Assembly (NCBI GenBank): GCA_964399295.1
Contig: CAYNQD010000002.1
Span: 104,358 to 168,357, forward strand
From: an uncultured Candidatus Saccharibacteria bacterium
GTDB lineage: Bacteria; Patescibacteriota; Minisyncoccia; Phycocordibacterales; UBA918
Length of the DNA: 64,000 bases
Direction of reading: 5' to 3'
How positions within the stretch are numbered: the stretch's first letter is position 1; the number at the start of each line of letters is the position of its first letter. Below the pieces are notes generated by a model. It had not been told where the DNA came from. It made no database searches and saw only the letters and a program-made list of their open reading frames with translations. The translations under genes were made by a program, and so were the position numbers. This document shows, in pieces, positions 2,718 through 17,344 of this stretch.

Positions 2718-3569
2718 ATGGATATTTTACAATTTATTTTAGAGCCATTGCAGTATGCGTTTATAGTGAAAGCACTCTGGGTTTCAATGGTGGTGGGCGC
2801 TACTTGCGCTATTCTTTCTTGTTTTATGATTTTGAAAGGCTGGTCGTTGCTTGGTGACGCTATCTCGCATGCGGTTTTGCCGGGGGTGGTAATAGCTTAT
2901 ATTATCGGTATTCCTTTTAGCCTGGGAGCTTTTGTTTTTGCGCTCTTGGCGGTGGCGTTGATTGGTTTGGTAAAAACCAACACCAAGATAAAAGAAGATG
3001 CCATCATGGGAATTGTTTTCACAACGCTCTTTGCTTTTGGTTTGATTTTGATTTCTCAGGTAAAAAGCACGGTAGACCTCACTCACGTATTGTTTGGTTA
3101 TGTGCTTGGGATTTCTGATGAGTCTGCCATTTACACGATTGGCGTGCTGGCTGTCGTAGCGGCTGTGATTTTGGTTTTTAGGAGAGTGTTTTTGGTTTTT
3201 AGTTTTGATGCCACGCATGCGGAGTCTATTGGCATGCCGGTCAAGCTCATTCAATATGCGCTTTTGGTGCTTTTGGCTATAACCATCACCAGCTCTTTGC
3301 AGACCGTGGGTATAATCCTTGTGATTGCCATGCTTATTACTCCCGGCTCGACAGCTTTTCTTTTGACTAAGAAATTTTCTTCGATGCTTTGGATTGCGGC
3401 ATTTGTCAGCGTACTAAGCTCGATAGTGGGTGTCTATGCCAGCTTCTATCTTGATATTTCAACCGGTGGCGCCATTGTGTTTACGCAAGGTTTGATTTTC
3501 TTGGGAGTGTTTGTTTATCACTTGGGGAAATTTGGCAGTGAGGTGAAAGTCGCGGTGAAGGGAAGTTAG
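2718..3569 (+). CDS. metal ABC transporter permease (ZnuB/MntB-like)
   Basis: 283-aa multi-TM protein. The start is 3 nt after the ATPase stop. ABC-3 permease-like sequence. Confidence 0.85.
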   Translation: MDILQFILEPLQYAFIVKALWVSMVVGATCAILSCFMILKGWSLLGDAISHAVLPGVVIAYIIGIPFSLGAFVFALLAVALIGLVKTNTKIKEDAIMGIVFTTLFAFGLILISQVKSTVDLTHVLFGYVLGISDESAIYTIGVLAVVAAVILVFRRVFLVFSFDATHAESIGMPVKLIQYALLVLLAITITSSLQTVGIILVIAMLITPGSTAFLLTKKFSSMLWIAAFVSVLSSIVGVYASFYLDISTGGAIVFTQGLIFLGVFVYHLGKFGSEVKVAVKGS

Positions 3570-8922: not shown

Positions 8923-8967
8923 GCTAAAATGGTATTATTATAAAGCATTAGTTTAATTGGATTATTT

Positions 8968-9351: not shown

Positions 9352-9675
9352 GTAAACCACAGAACATTTTTATCAGACCACAACTACCCAAGCCTAAAAA
9401 TTACTATCATAACTACAAAGTAACCAGTAGTTATCCACATTCCGTAACTGTTGATATCTAAAGAAAATCCTTTTTTATAGCCATTCCCCAAAAAGATATA
9501 ATTTTTCTGAAGATGGTATTATATAGGCACGCACGAATTCTACACCGTGTGTTTCTTATATAGAGTTATATTTTCACACGCAGTTTGTATCTTTCTTAAA
9601 CTTAATTGCGTCCTACATCAACACTTAAGTTTGTGAGAGATAAGGTTAAATTTTATTAGTTTTATTTATCAGAAG

Positions 9676-10998
9676 TTGTTATTTATGGAGATTAAGCACA
9701 TTCGTAAGAGAGATGGTTCAGTTCAGCCTTTTCACATGGTCAAGATTGAAAACGCCATCTTGAAAGCTCTTTTTGAGACTGGAGAAGGAGAGGTGGCTGA
9801 TGCCAAAAAAGTAGCTGACCTAGTACACCAAAAGACAATCGCTATGTGCGTCCAAGCAGCGACCGCTGATCCAAGCAGCGCCTTAGCGAAAAAATGTGTT
9901 GATGGCTATCCGGCGGTGGAAGAGATTCAAGACTTGGTAGAGCAGGCCCTGATGGAGCTGGATTACTTTGAAACCGCTAAAGCGTACATTATTTACCGCA
10001 ATGCTCGCAAAAAATTACGCGAGCGCGACATCTTCAAAAAACGAACCAACCTCAAGCCTTACGAATACCCGGAATTGTATGAGTATGTGAGTTCCATAAG
10101 GCATTCCTATTGGATTCATACTGAGTTCAATTTCACCAGTGACCTCAATGATTTTCATATCAATGTCACACCAGCTGAAAGAAACGCCATAAAAAACGCC
10201 ATGCTAGCCATTGCCCAGATTGAGGTAGCTGTAAAAACTTTCTGGGGCGATATCTACAAGAAAATGCCAAAGCCGGAAATTGGTGCTGTGGGCTTTACCT
10301 TTGCCGAAAGTGAAGTTAGGCACATGGACGCTTACTCGCACTTGGTAGAAATTCTCGGCCTTAATTCAGAATTTGAAAATATCACGAAAGTTCCAGTTAT
10401 TCAGCAGAGGATTGCCTACCTTGAAAAAACCGTCGCTCTAGCCAGGACTGAAGAGAATCGCCAGTACATGCACTCAGTAATGCTCTTTTCGCTATTTATT
10501 GAGCATGTGTCTCTATTTTCACAGTTTCTTATTATCATGTCCTTCAATAAGCACCGTAATCTGTTCAAGGGTATCAGCAACGCGGTGGAGGCGACATCAA
10601 AAGAAGAGCAAATTCACGGTATGTTTGGTATTGATATCATCAATATAATCAAGAAGGAACATCCGGAGTGGTTTGATGACAATTGCAAAAACATGATTAT
10701 CAAGGCCTGCGAGGAAGCTTATGAAGCGGAAAGCAAGGTGATTGATTGGATTTATGAGGCTGGGGAATTGGATTTTTTACCTTCTACCAACGTTAAGGAA
10801 TTTGTTAAGCATCGTTTCAACAATTCCTTGGTGGCGGTTGGTTTGCCTAGGATTTTTGATGTCAGTGAGGCTCTACTTGAAGAAACAGACTGGTTTGATA
10901 ATGAAGTGATTGCGACTAAGCACGTGGATTTTTTCCAGAAGCGTTCCATCAACTACAACAAACGCAGCGCCAGTGTTACCAGTGATGATTTATTTTAA
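9676..10998 (+). CDS. nrdB: class I ribonucleotide reductase beta subunit (R2) with an N-terminal ATP-cone
   Basis: N-terminal about 90 aa read as an ATP-cone (KRDGSVQPFHMVKIENAILKA). Ferritin-like di-metal ligands E...EVRH...Y with the E115/H118/Y122 spacing, E in FIEH, and EEQIH. Confidence 0.8.
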   Translation: MLFMEIKHIRKRDGSVQPFHMVKIENAILKALFETGEGEVADAKKVADLVHQKTIAMCVQAATADPSSALAKKCVDGYPAVEEIQDLVEQALMELDYFETAKAYIIYRNARKKLRERDIFKKRTNLKPYEYPELYEYVSSIRHSYWIHTEFNFTSDLNDFHINVTPAERNAIKNAMLAIAQIEVAVKTFWGDIYKKMPKPEIGAVGFTFAESEVRHMDAYSHLVEILGLNSEFENITKVPVIQQRIAYLEKTVALARTEENRQYMHSVMLFSLFIEHVSLFSQFLIIMSFNKHRNLFKGISNAVEATSKEEQIHGMFGIDIINIIKKEHPEWFDDNCKNMIIKACEEAYEAESKVIDWIYEAGELDFLPSTNVKEFVKHRFNNSLVAVGLPRIFDVSEALLEETDWFDNEVIATKHVDFFQKRSINYNKRSASVTSDDLF

Positions 10999-11022
10999 TT
11001 TGTAATAAGACATACAACGTAT

Positions 11023-12699
11023 ATGGAATCTTGGTATTGGTTGAACGAAAACAGTCGGAATTTTTTGGCCAGAGGTTATTTGGCCAAAGGTCAGACGGCG
11101 GAAGAGCGGATTCAAGTGATTGCGAAGACAGCAGGCAAATTTTTGAATCGCCCAGACTTCGCAGACAAATTTGTTGACTATATGAGCAAGGGTTGGATAT
11201 CTTTGGCTTCTCCCGTCTGGTCAAATTTTGGTATAGATAAAGGATTGCCGATTAGTTGTTTTGGCTCTTACGTGGACGACAACATGGGAAGCATTCTCTA
11301 CACCAATGCCGAGGTGGGAATGCAAAGCAAGTTTGGCGGCGGCTGCTCAGGCTATTTTGGCGATTTGCGCAGTCGGGGAGCGACGATTTCCGGTAATGGT
11401 CACTCCTCTGGATCAGTGCATTTCATGCAGTTGTTTGAGACTTTGGTTGATGTTGTTAGTCAGGGTTCTGTCAGACGGGGGCATTTTTCTCCTTATCTGC
11501 CGATTGAGCACGAAGATATAATGGAATTTTTGGATATTGGCACTGAGGGCAATCCCATCCAAAAGCTCACCCACGGCGTGACCGTGACCGATGAATGGAT
11601 GAAAAAAATGATTGACGGTGATGAGGAAAAAAGAGCTATTTGGGCCAGAGTCATCCAGCGGCGCGGGGAAATGGGTTATCCGTACATTATGTTTAAGGAT
11701 GCGGCTAACAAAAATACCGTGGATGTTTATAAGGATAAAAATCTCACCATTCATGCCAGCAACATGTGCAGTGAGATTATGTTACCTTCAAATGATGAAT
11801 GGTCATTTGTCTGCTGCTTGTCTTCCGTCAATCTGCTGCACTACGAAGCTTGGAAAGATACAGACCTGATCGAAACCATGATTGCTTTTCTCGATGCTGT
11901 GATGGAGGATTTTATTCAAAAACTTGAAGCCATGCGTGATAGTAAAGATAAAGAGAAACGCCTGGCTTTTGGCTTCATGGAGAGAGCGTTTAATTTTGCC
12001 AAAGCCAACCGCGCGTTGGGTCTGGGTGTTCTTGGTTGGCATTCGCTTTTGCAAGCCAGAAAACTTTCTTTCGAGAGCAAGGAGGCCGCAGTGCTAAATA
12101 TTGAAGTGTTCAAATACATCGACACCAAAGCACAATTGGCCACCAAAACTTTAGCTAAGGAGCTGGGTGAACCGGAAATCCTCAAGGGCTACGGCCGACG
12201 CAACACCACGCTCTTGGCTATTGCTCCCACTACTTCTTCTGCCTTTATTATGGGGCAGGTGTCGCAGGGTATTGAGCCAATCTGGTCAAATTGTTATACC
12301 AAAGACGTGGCCAAGCTAAAAGTCACTATCAAAAATCCAAATCTCAAAGAATTGTTGGAAGAAAAAGGCCAGGACACCAAAGAAGTGTGGGACAGCATTC
12401 GCGACCACGATGGTTCGGTTCAGCATTTGGATTTTTTGACGACAGCAGAAAGAGAAGTGTTCCGTACTTTCTCCGAGATCGACCAATCCGTAGTTATCAA
12501 GCAAGCAGCCGATCGACAAAAGTATATCGACCAAGGCCAGTCGCTAAATATTATGGTTGAGCCAGCCACTCCAGTCAAAGAAATCAATCAGCTCTATATT
12601 CAGGCTTGGAAGCAAGGGGTAAAGTCTCTTTACTATCAGCACTCCATGAACGCGGCCCAGCAAATGGTAAGAAAAAAGTTAACGGAAGGGAAGGGGTAG
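11023..12699 (+). CDS. nrdA: ribonucleotide reductase catalytic alpha subunit, short form without an ATP-cone
   Basis: Catalytic NxCxE motif (HASNMCSEIMLPSNDE). C-terminal YY (KSLYYQHS) but no terminal Cys pair. 558 aa. Confidence 0.8.
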   Translation: MESWYWLNENSRNFLARGYLAKGQTAEERIQVIAKTAGKFLNRPDFADKFVDYMSKGWISLASPVWSNFGIDKGLPISCFGSYVDDNMGSILYTNAEVGMQSKFGGGCSGYFGDLRSRGATISGNGHSSGSVHFMQLFETLVDVVSQGSVRRGHFSPYLPIEHEDIMEFLDIGTEGNPIQKLTHGVTVTDEWMKKMIDGDEEKRAIWARVIQRRGEMGYPYIMFKDAANKNTVDVYKDKNLTIHASNMCSEIMLPSNDEWSFVCCLSSVNLLHYEAWKDTDLIETMIAFLDAVMEDFIQKLEAMRDSKDKEKRLAFGFMERAFNFAKANRALGLGVLGWHSLLQARKLSFESKEAAVLNIEVFKYIDTKAQLATKTLAKELGEPEILKGYGRRNTTLLAIAPTTSSAFIMGQVSQGIEPIWSNCYTKDVAKLKVTIKNPNLKELLEEKGQDTKEVWDSIRDHDGSVQHLDFLTTAEREVFRTFSEIDQSVVIKQAADRQKYIDQGQSLNIMVEPATPVKEINQLYIQAWKQGVKSLYYQHSMNAAQQMVRKKLTEGKG

Positions 12700-12780: not shown

Positions 12781-13242
12781 ATGAAATGGAAGCAAACACC
12801 TATAGCCAAAATCTACGAAGCTCTTGGTTGTGTGGCCGATGGGAGGGTTGAAGTATCTGGTGATACCTCCAAGGTCTTTTCTTCCAGTGGTGGAAAATTT
12901 TACACAGTCACTTACGATCCGGTATCGCAAGCGATTATGGTCAATGACAACGGATCGTTCTGGGGAGGATATTTGGGTTATCCGGCTGTGGCCTACTTGA
13001 TGATAGTGGGGGAGTTGTCGTACTCCCCCAAGATAGCCGCGGAGCTTAAGGGCATCGCTTGGAAAGATATAAACCAAAAATTCAAAAATGACTTTGATAA
13101 GGCTGTTGAATTTATCTTGAGCAGCAAGCCGCTGGAAATCAAAGAAGCCATCGAAGCAGAAGTGAATAAAATATACGGCCAATTAACGGCCAAGAGCTAT
13201 AATCTGCTTGGTAGGAAAATGCGACCGCCGGCTGGGTACTAG
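12781..13242 (+). CDS. hypothetical protein
   Basis: 153-aa ORF with non-repetitive, protein-like composition. Preferred over the overlapping minus ORF 12679-13182. Confidence 0.45.
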   Translation: MKWKQTPIAKIYEALGCVADGRVEVSGDTSKVFSSSGGKFYTVTYDPVSQAIMVNDNGSFWGGYLGYPAVAYLMIVGELSYSPKIAAELKGIAWKDINQKFKNDFDKAVEFILSSKPLEIKEAIEAEVNKIYGQLTAKSYNLLGRKMRPPAGY

Positions 13243-13494: not shown

Positions 13495-13512
13495 ATTTTT
13501 TAGAGTTCCAAA

Positions 13513-13540
13513 GGCGATCGCAAGATCGCCTTTTCTTTTC
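13513..13540 (+). terminator. intrinsic terminator
   Basis: GGCGATC-GCAA-GATCGCC followed by TTTTCTTTTC. Confidence 0.8.
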
Positions 13541-13572
13541 TCCGCAAAAATTGGTATTATTTAAAAATCAAT

Positions 13573-16230: not shown

Positions 16231-16297
16231 TATCCTATCAAAAGATTGAAATAATCCTATCATTTTGATAGGATTATTGATTATAAATGATAGGATT
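16231..16297. promoter_or_regulatory. operator-like array: four copies of ATCCTATCA/TGATAGGAT, including the 23-bp perfect palindrome AATCCTATCA-TTT-TGATAGGATT (16253-16275)
   Basis: Read directly. The last copy ends at the ATG of the Fic gene. Confidence 0.6.
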
Positions 16298-17344
16298 ATG
16301 ATTTCACTAAATATTAGACAAAAAGCTATTTTGGCTCACTACACCCAGATAGATGCCTTTACTCCTCAGCAGGCCAAAGAAGCTCTCGGGCTCACCGCTT
16401 CTTTGGTGACAGTGCGTCGTGATATACGAGCTTTGGTTGACTTTTCTTACTTGAAAGAAGATGGTGCGGGTCCAGCGTTGCGATATTTTAAAACTATTCT
16501 TGGTACACTACTTACTCCGATTGACGCTACGGAGTACCAGAATATTGATGTTGACAAGCGTGGTCAAAAAATCACTTTCAACCAAGCTCTTTTCCCACAA
16601 TTTCCCAAAAATATCTTTTCGTCTGAAGAGATGGAAAAACTAAATGGAGCTACCACGCGTTATAAAAAGAAGATAGAAAATCAGACACAAAATATTCACG
16701 CTAAAGAGCTTGAGCGTTTTGTTATTGAGCTGTCATGGAAGTCGTCAAGAATTGAGGGAAATACATACACGCTTTTGGACACAGAATTACTTTTAAAAGA
16801 AGGGACACCCGCGCTGGGAAAAACACCTGAAGAAACCACCATGATTCTAAATCATAAAACCGCTTTTACTTTTATCATGGAGCAACGACAGTTTTTACGG
16901 CAAGGCAATCTTATCCATTTTCTGGAAGAACTTCACCGGCTACTGACTGATAATCTGTCTATCGACCAAGGGATCCGTAAATCGCTAGTTGGTATTACCG
17001 GTACCAACTACGTACCTTTAGAAATTGGCTTTCAAATACAAGAAGCTCTTAATGATTTGTGTGAAAGTATAGAGCGAGCCTCCAGTGCCTACCAAAAAGC
17101 TCTTTTAGCCTTGGTGGGAGTTTCTTATATCCAACCTTTTGTTGATGGCAATAAGCGTACGGCACGATTGTTTGCCAATGCTTTTTTGATATCTGAAAAT
17201 TTGGCGCCACTATCGTACCGGAATGTTGACGAAAGAGATTATCGAGAAGCTATATTAGTCTTTTACGAACGTAACTCAATTTTGCCAATGAAGAATATAT
17301 TTATTGAGCAATATCTATTTTCTACCGAAAACTATACTCTGTAG
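16298..17344 (+). CDS. Fic/Doc-family protein with an N-terminal HTH domain
   Basis: Fic active-site motif variant QPFVDGNKRTAR (HPFx[DE]GNGR). N-terminal DeoR-like HTH (KAILAHYTQIDAFTPQQAKEALGLTASLVTVRRDIRAL). Start set at ATG 16298. The ORF is open from TTG 16265 through the operator repeats. Confidence 0.75.
   Translation: MISLNIRQKAILAHYTQIDAFTPQQAKEALGLTASLVTVRRDIRALVDFSYLKEDGAGPALRYFKTILGTLLTPIDATEYQNIDVDKRGQKITFNQALFPQFPKNIFSSEEMEKLNGATTRYKKKIENQTQNIHAKELERFVIELSWKSSRIEGNTYTLLDTELLLKEGTPALGKTPEETTMILNHKTAFTFIMEQRQFLRQGNLIHFLEELHRLLTDNLSIDQGIRKSLVGITGTNYVPLEIGFQIQEALNDLCESIERASSAYQKALLALVGVSYIQPFVDGNKRTARLFANAFLISENLAPLSYRNVDERDYREAILVFYERNSILPMKNIFIEQYLFSTENYTL

Follow-up and report, generated by a model that had tools for sequence, protein, structure and literature searches.

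The window analysed here is a 64,000-nucleotide stretch of contig CAYNQD010000002.1 (assembly GCA_964399295.1, positions 104,358 to 168,357 of the forward strand), deposited as an uncultured Candidatus Saccharibacteria bacterium, and it carries an nrdB-nrdA gene pair that encodes a class I ribonucleotide reductase (RNR). The catalytic α subunit of this enzyme lacks the C-terminal cysteine pair, and the ATP-cone of its radical-generating β subunit is interrupted by an insertion with two invariant cysteines, C55 and C71. Loss of the α tail is real, clade-wide and recurrent, and the order of events is that the cysteine-pair insertion came first and the α cysteine pair was lost repeatedly afterwards. 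The best explanation for the whole, which we put forward tentatively, is that this is a functional class Id operon from the Paceibacteria in which the tail has been lost and the β dithiol is a candidate redox relay.

According to the literature, all class I RNRs are re-reduced through a cysteine pair at the C-terminus of α. The pair has been called universal in class I (PMC6187632), class I has been described as having it 'almost exclusively' (PMC9669993), and a CXXC was counted in 1737 of 2022 sequences (PMC9531940). A literature search found no description of tail-less class I enzymes or of Patescibacteria RNRs, and recurrent α-tail loss coupled to a β cysteine-pair insertion appears to be undescribed. 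That an abundant uncultivated lineage has repeatedly discarded the pair with its catalytic residues intact provides a natural system for asking what the α tail is needed for and what can replace it, and it bears on deoxyribonucleotide synthesis in the host-dependent, minimal-genome Patescibacteria.

Identity of the two subunits

The two open reading frames (ORFs) are co-directional and separated by 24 nt, with β first: nrdB at 9685-10998 on the forward strand, stop codon included, and nrdA at 11023-12699 on the same strand. This order agrees with the first-pass annotation of the DNA, made from its letters alone. That annotation started β at a TTG at 9676; the ATG at 9685 is the start instead, giving the 437 residues seen in nearly all of the 120 closest β homologues. 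Homologues are named in their sources as Nomurabacteria, Kaiserbacteria, Paceibacterota and Parcubacteria, which puts the window in the Patescibacteria. Some metagenome-assembled genomes whose contigs have nrdBA of the Paceibacteria type or a related type bear other titles (Flavobacteriales for L005, Saccharibacteria for L006 and L022, Gammaproteobacteria for L031), which is probably binning or labelling noise.

β aligns over its full length with NrdB of Leeuwenhoekiella blandensis (PDB 5OLK; 63% identity, E 3.5e-172), a radical-generating subunit of class Id (NrdBi) with an N-terminal ATP-cone. Its R2 ferritin-like core (10042-10863, forward strand) matches Ribonuc_red_sm (PF00268) at residues 123-396 of the 440-aa TTG reading (E 1.3e-58, Pfam) and has ESEVRHMDAY at the E-x2-H-x3-Y motif, which bears out the earlier reading of a complete core with EVRH...Y. 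The manganese ligands of L. blandensis NrdB are E170, E200, H203, E263, E298 and H301 (PMC6754362). Their counterparts here (E180, E210, H213, E273, E308 and H311) are invariant in our alignment A1 and make a set of four Glu and two His whose N-terminal-most ligand is Glu, not Asp. The NrdBi signature Lys174 and conserved Trp of L. blandensis, and its Tyr207 held by Thr294 (PMC6754362), are likewise found as K184, W187, Y217 (at the position of the radical site) and T304 (K174, W177, Y207 and T294 in L. blandensis), also invariant in A1. The class Ib model was failed (TIGR04171, score 50 vs a cutoff of 355, NCBIfam). From the 63% identity to L. blandensis NrdB, the cofactor is predicted to be a radical-initiating dimanganese centre, Mn2(IV,III), formed with superoxide.

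The N-terminal ATP-cone, at β residues 5-110 (9697-10014, forward strand), scored 73.8 bits against PF03477, well over the Pfam cutoff of 25.8 (E 1.7e-20, residues 8-113 of the 440-aa TTG reading), and the K8, R9 and D10 of its KRDG hairpin are invariant in A1. The cone-cone interface that forms with dATP in L. blandensis involves D73, E76 or D77, M80, K89, I92, I93 and R95 (PMC5794259), and the counterparts in β (D83, E86, M90, K99, I102, I103 and R105) are again all invariant in A1. The cone is thus predicted to be a dATP/ATP on/off master switch that works by dATP-driven tetramerisation of β, as in L. blandensis.

The 558-residue product of nrdA is a minimal class Id (NrdAi) catalytic subunit. 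It passes TIGR02510 ('NrdE-prime') with 746 bits against a cutoff of 602 and fails the class Ib model TIGR04170 (141 vs 750; both NCBIfam), and its top PDB matches are two class Id α subunits, 6DQX from Actinobacillus ureae (E 1.3e-209) and 6DQW from Flavobacterium johnsoniae (E 3.7e-186). Pfam finds Ribonuc_red_lgN and lgC and no ATP-cone. The catalytic set comprises N247-M-C249-S-E251, the redox pair C79/C264 and Y537-Y538, and C79, C264 and C249 are kept throughout the alignment of 232 sequences. The protein would be a minimal catalytic barrel that reduces ribonucleoside diphosphates, with a thiyl radical on C249 and C79/C264 as the reducing pair. The conserved ligands, signatures and cone interface of β, the catalytic residues of α and the family scores together lead us to conclude with high confidence, from sequence comparison, that the gene pair is a bona fide and functional NrdAi/NrdBi enzyme with its switch on β. 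The first-pass annotation had already assigned it to this subclass, and the matches to 5OLK, 6DQX and 6DQW and the TIGR02510 score place it there.

A class Id architecture with the cone on β has been published (Rozman Grinberg 2018, PMC5794259). It is also not as rare as first noted, since a pattern scan across GTDB, with a single genome for each species, gave at least 582 confirmed matches. Many NrdAi relatives of α (P0241-P0390) are 650-1650 residues long and match in two to four separate stretches; such a pattern would fit inteins, one to three per protein, inserted at recurring positions around query residues 145-148 and 247-250. The α of the window has none.

The cysteine tail is genuinely absent

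Beyond the tyrosine pair α consists of YYQHSMNAAQQMVRKKLTEGKG (12631-12696, forward strand), a Lys/Glu-rich tail that runs directly into the stop codon with no Cys and no CxxCE[GA], and so the C-terminal cysteine pair of class I is missing. The residues and the Pfam results agree with the original description of a 558-aa α with NxCxE and a YY pair, without ATP-cone or CxxC tail. Unusual C-termini in assembled metagenomes frequently turn out to be errors, and this general prior is the one argument for seeing here a sequencing or assembly truncation, a frameshift or a decaying, non-functional gene. Against it, the identical 558-aa protein is present on six contigs (NCBI and Logan), and the other two frames past 12699, which read KVNGREGVDESLGEFVVSGIV up to a stop and an immediate stop, contain no Cys. 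Among the closest α clusters (80-100% identity) the tails are Cys-free and Lys/Glu-rich in 120 of 120, with 20-34 residues from the YY pair, and a Cys-free tail is common to 215 distinct 90%-identity clusters. Across many genomes, the catalytic residues are all invariant at 80-90% overall identity, which implies strong purifying selection. Truncation or frameshift at 12699, which the first-pass annotation had singled out for checking, was rejected on these grounds, and an artefact or pseudogene of any kind has next to no probability.

In the wider family the tail is the rule. The α sequence was searched against 1.84 billion representatives, and the 150 best, which are 50%-identity representatives 35-65% identical to the query, were examined. 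Leaving aside a few internally ending fragments, all but three end with a cysteine pair, almost always in the form CxxC[EHSQ][GAS]. In two of the three exceptions the sequence stops shortly past the YY pair, within a few residues. The pair is also kept in about 60 Flavobacteriales loci, including L. blandensis (L053, ...KKECVSCEA), and in six loci without the β insertion, five from Patescibacteria and one labelled gammaproteobacterial; nearly all tail-bearing loci of these two groups end in CxxCE[GA].

The third exception, P0368 on L089, is a complete gene whose tail is split off into an overlapping ORF of 72 residues ending ...PCSACEG. In the stretch L089:2501-4383, this distant NrdAi (38% identity) itself ends in LYYLLSSKIR before its stop codon, and the overlapping ORF ends in ...NAPCSACEG before its own. 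The redox tail of L089 may be a separate ORF or may have been cut off by a frameshift. The L089 contig is phage-like, with a Dam methylase and an RRXRR protein, and the gene with the RRXRR domain lies between nrdB and nrdA.

Two residues within α set the subclade of the window apart. C108 (GGG-C108-SG, 11344-11346) is Thr in 96 of 112 other NrdAi, and M248 (N-M248-C-S-E, 11764-11766), adjoining the thiyl cysteine, is Leu elsewhere; both occur in 120 of 120 sequences of the subclade and in none of the other tail-less lineages. Relocation of a cysteine within α was rejected as an explanation of the missing tail since the tail-less L001, L010 and L012 have T108, and M248 was rejected as its cause since the tail-less L010 and L012 have Leu beside the thiyl cysteine.

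Tail loss is nested within a clade with a cysteine-pair insertion in the ATP-cone

The first-pass annotation was right about the cone itself and overlooked a conserved insertion of 13 residues in it that carries two cysteines. This clade-specific stretch, MCVQAATADPSSALAKKCVDGYP, occupies β residues 54-76 between cone helices 2 and 3 (9844-9912, forward strand), interrupting the cone, and is 13 residues longer than its L. blandensis counterpart. C55 (9847-9849) and C71 (9895-9897), both on the forward strand, are invariant, being kept in 121 of 121 sequences, and the residues between them vary. The insertion was not found in L. blandensis or any Flavobacteriales locus compared. In sister lineages the loop likewise holds two cysteines, spaced there as C-x8-C, C-x9-C or C-x3-C, and this, together with the invariance of C55 and C71, suggests that the dithiol itself is under selection.

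An AlphaFold2 (AF2) prediction of β from a 65-sequence alignment (mean predicted local distance difference test score, pLDDT, 77) gave pLDDT values of 84-94 across the cone, insertion included. In the predicted structure helix 2 runs to residue 60, with C55 inside it, and C71, at the base of the loop, belongs to a short strand that immediately precedes helix 3. The residues that link the cone to the core (111-128) were predicted with low confidence.

To compare the state of the tail with that of the cone, β and α were read from 88 related loci plus the window. Thirteen, which are all the tail-less loci in which both genes were readable, combine a tail-less α with the C-x15-C insertion: the window, L001-L004, L006, L008-L010, L012 and L085-L087. 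The CxxC tail coexists with the C-x15-C insertion in four (L011, L083, L084 and L088) and with a variant pair in the loop in three (C-x8-C in L082, C-x9-C in L062 and C-x3-C in L081). A cysteine-pair tail without a pair in the cone is found in L014, L022, L027, L030, L031, L034 and all Flavobacteriales. The remaining combination, a tail-less α without a cone pair, does not occur among these loci (n = 0).

A neighbour-joining tree was built from the α core and β core, with tail and cone left out. The insertion clade has a bootstrap of 1.0, and the tail-bearing L011 is nested in it among tail-less lineages. On 261 α sequences, Fitch parsimony gave 6-11 changes of tail state (median 9, 40 bootstraps), and Dollo parsimony, which allows no regain, gave 13-22 tail losses over the same bootstraps. 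Every inferred loss falls inside the insertion clade, a single clade of Paceibacteria. Since the losses are all inside this clade and tail-bearing lineages in it already carry the insertion, the insertion preceded the losses.

The sequences also show how the pair was lost. The ending ...QKICRACEG is replaced in place by ...QKITRAEENNAE, ...QKITRQNES or ...QKLTRSEEN..., so that ICRACEG has decayed to forms including ITRAEEN, ITRQNES and LTRSEEN. Decay in place of this kind, as from ICRACEG to ITRAEEN, indicates point loss and not gene fission. We conclude with high confidence that the α tail is dispensable in this clade, and it follows that C79/C264 are re-reduced independently of the tail.

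Routes of active-site re-reduction

In the mechanism that we favour, the active-site disulfide C79/C264 would be re-reduced by a route that does not involve an α tail, and the C55/C71 dithiol, on its flexibly tethered ATP-cone, would be the best candidate for a component of that route. It would serve as a redox relay built into the radical-generating subunit, a functional analogue of the glutaredoxin (Grx) on NrdB of Facklamia ignava. Four lines of evidence favour this route: the strict nesting of the losses within the insertion clade, the invariance of C55 and C71 with alternative spacings in the sister lineages, the redox module on NrdBi of F. ignava, where a Grx domain reduces the RNR (PMC6187632), and the approach of the L. 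blandensis cone to the C-terminal region of α, which cryo-electron microscopy places ~10 Å apart, with the α active sites facing β (PMC8350387). Participation of the cone dithiol in tail-independent re-reduction is on this basis a serious possibility that we judge to fall somewhat short of an even chance. The more specific idea that the shuttle dithiol moved from the α tail to the cone insertion, so that one tethered domain both switches and re-reduces the enzyme, is more doubtful.

Several points weigh against a relay on the cone. In class I α subunits it is normally a disordered tail, and nothing else, that gets to the active-site disulfide, and AF2 predicts the insertion to be well ordered (pLDDT ~90), not a flexible arm. 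The cysteine pair coexists with the α tail in the basal L011, L083, L084 and L088, so it must at first have served another purpose. Phylogeny also confounds the association, as the insertion is found in one clade, and some other feature of these genomes could have made the tail unnecessary. A donor that would supply the β dithiol with electrons was not identified.

The main competitor is direct reduction, in which a small-molecule thiol or dithiol, or a dedicated redoxin encoded elsewhere, would act on the active site itself. C55 and C71 would then play no part in turnover; they would clamp the structure, provide half of a metal site, or modulate the cone switch through redox state or nucleotide binding. 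We regard this as neither more nor less plausible than participation of the β dithiol. E. coli tail mutants remain active with dithiothreitol (PMC4078304), and direct reduction has also been suggested for those class II RNRs that lack cysteines at the C-terminus (bioRxiv 10.1101/2022.04.23.489257). The properties of the insertion would suit it too: the cysteine pair is older than the tail loss, and the insertion is ordered and lies immediately before cone helix 3. By alignment to the E. coli cone, the start of that helix would contribute residues that contact the nucleotide. However, direct reduction does not account for the restriction of six or more independent losses to the insertion clade, with no loss among the remaining Patescibacteria or over 200 further NrdAi, and no redoxin gene is adjacent to the operon or present in the 64-kb window. 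Scans of the window in all frames found none of the motifs WCGPC, CPYC and C[VMI]QC, and thus no thioredoxin (Trx), Grx or NrdH motif; there is no redoxin among the Pfam-scanned neighbours and no nrdH or nrdI near nrdBA. An adjacent redoxin was rejected, the motif scan, the neighbour Pfam results and the synteny all being negative, and the first-pass statement that no nrdH, nrdI or glutaredoxin gene is adjacent stands.

A further option is that a small tail-mimicking protein, encoded elsewhere, provides the shuttle cysteines in trans. The split gene of L089 shows that the tail can be an ORF of its own. This solution is improbable all the same, as the in-place decay from ICRACEG to ITRAEEN is a point loss and not a fission, and no ORF ending like CxxCE[GA] occurs in the window or the 12 tail-less loci; a nearby small-ORF mimic was rejected for the latter reason.

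If the β dithiol is the replacement for the tail, the ATP-cone, known so far purely for sensing nucleotides, would gain a redox role, and the radical-generating subunit would have a second way, after the Grx fusion of F. ignava, of supplying reducing power. The enzyme would also be the first class I RNR to turn over without the C-terminal cysteines of α.

Comparison with known systems

The closest characterized system is the NrdAi/NrdBi pair of L. blandensis (5OLK, 6SF4; PMC5794259). The two have in common the β-α gene order, the N-terminal cone on NrdB and a cone-less α (~66% identical between them), and they are identical at the Mn ligands, at the signature Lys and Trp, at the Tyr site and at the residues of the cone-cone tetramer interface. 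They differ in that L. blandensis α ends with a CxxC shuttle, whereas the tail of the window α is Cys-free, and in that L. blandensis β is without the 13-residue two-cysteine insertion. The α subunits of F. johnsoniae and A. ureae (6DQW and 6DQX) are similar in size (~560 aa), in the absence of an ATP-cone and in their catalytic motifs, but the β subunits of these organisms (6CWO and related) align only to the R2 core of the window protein (117-440) and appear to be cone-less.

The Grx::ATP-cone::NrdB protein of F. ignava (PMC6187632) is likewise an NrdBi with a dithiol module on the N-terminal side, beside the cone. Its module is, however, a complete Grx domain with a CxxC, whereas the window β has only two cysteines 16 residues apart within the cone; no Grx domain was matched on it by Pfam or NCBIfam, and its cone begins at residue 5. 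According to that paper's general statement on class I, the redoxin acts on the C-terminal cysteines of α, a target that the tail-less α of the window does not offer. Enzymes that operate without a shuttle are found among the class III RNRs, which are reduced by thioredoxin or formate directly, and the class II RNRs without a Cys tail (PMC9669993, 10.1101/2022.04.23.489257). With no shuttle, the active site of these enzymes has to be supplied with reducing equivalents directly. They belong to different classes with different radical generation.

Gene neighbourhood and regulation

The neighbours of nrdBA are YibE_F, MscL, an orphan ORF of 153 residues, Peptidase_M10 and SIMPL genes. The order across relatives is YibE_F-mscL-nrdB-nrdA-(variable)-M10-SIMPL-secE-nusG, with no redoxin. 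The variable position after nrdA is filled in many class Id operons of Patescibacteria by a gene of 123-133 codons for a PNPOx_N protein (PF01243, a split barrel that binds flavin mononucleotide). It was located at L083:4768-5160, L084:5125-5496, L081:4184-4576, L086:4185-4586 and L087:4205-4585, and tblastn matches were obtained in L002, L003, L006, L009, L010, L022, L027 and L034. The gene accompanies tail-bearing and tail-less operons alike; the window does not have it. Superoxide is a requirement of class Id (PMC6754362), and the PNPOx_N protein could be an accessory flavoprotein that provides superoxide for the Mn2 cofactor or acts as an electron donor. In the window the slot is taken by the orphan ORF (12781-13242, forward strand), for which Pfam and NCBIfam gave nothing, PHROGs gave only a marginal match and every PDB match was at E 0.5 or worse. 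It is the sole member of its cluster, found on four contigs, and is not conserved in the related loci.

A tentative nrdB promoter is marked by the extended -10-like sequence TGGTATTAT at 9514-9522 (forward strand). The same sequence occurs three times in the window, each time just upstream of a gene (8930-8938 before mscL, 9514-9522 before nrdB and 13552-13560 before Peptidase_M10), and TGGTAAGAT, TGGTAATAT and TGGTATAGT are at the same place in L002, L003, L009 and L007. TGGTATTAT is probably the promoter -10 consensus of the organism. A terminator-like hairpin with a 10-bp stem and a T-run, also tentative, matches the consensus at 13510-13533 (forward strand), and these elements suggest a transcription unit nrdB-nrdA-orf153, which the hairpin would end. 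The counts from promoter and terminator scans were no higher than those from shuffled controls.

The 64-kb window has a single perfect DnaA box, TTATCCACA, at 9431-9439 (forward strand), some 250 nt before nrdB begins; a role is assigned to it tentatively. DnaA-box-like 9-mers occupy the corresponding position ahead of nrdB in L002, L003, L009, L008, L010, L014, L082, L006 and L062; those of L012, L084, L030 and L007 have the opposite orientation. The pattern suggests DnaA-linked control of RNR expression, which is known for E. coli nrdAB. No NrdR box was found upstream of nrdB, and two matches with three mismatches elsewhere in the window are at chance level.

In relatives, the leader of ~190 nt between the -10 box and nrdB is conserved and structured (L002:5757-5940; L003-L007, L009 and L010). 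It has four segments of the CACACG/CGTGTG type with alternative pairing and an invariant GGAGGTAAGAC loop. A second leader domain, GATTGCG..AGACCTAATTG..hairpin..CTCTTCCACCAATTA.GTCT..CGCAAT, shows eight compensatory pairs in seven sequences. The leader of the window (~9523-9684) is divergent, with the stems AAACTTAA/TTAAGTTT and ATCTTTC/GAGAGAT, and has TTTGTGAGAGA in common with L001. Neither the leader of the window nor five related loci matched any family of Rfam 15, and the nrdBA leader is possibly an undescribed cis-regulatory RNA of Paceibacteria.

Two further genes on the forward strand may be mentioned. An ABC-3 permease (PF00950, of the Mn/Zn-type ATP-binding cassette transporters) is encoded at 2718-3569, ~6 kb upstream of the Mn-dependent RNR; the ORFs at 1033-1956 and 1963-2715 are probably its partners, the permease alone having been scanned. 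A gene for a Fic/DOC-domain protein lies at 16265-17344, immediately after nusG.

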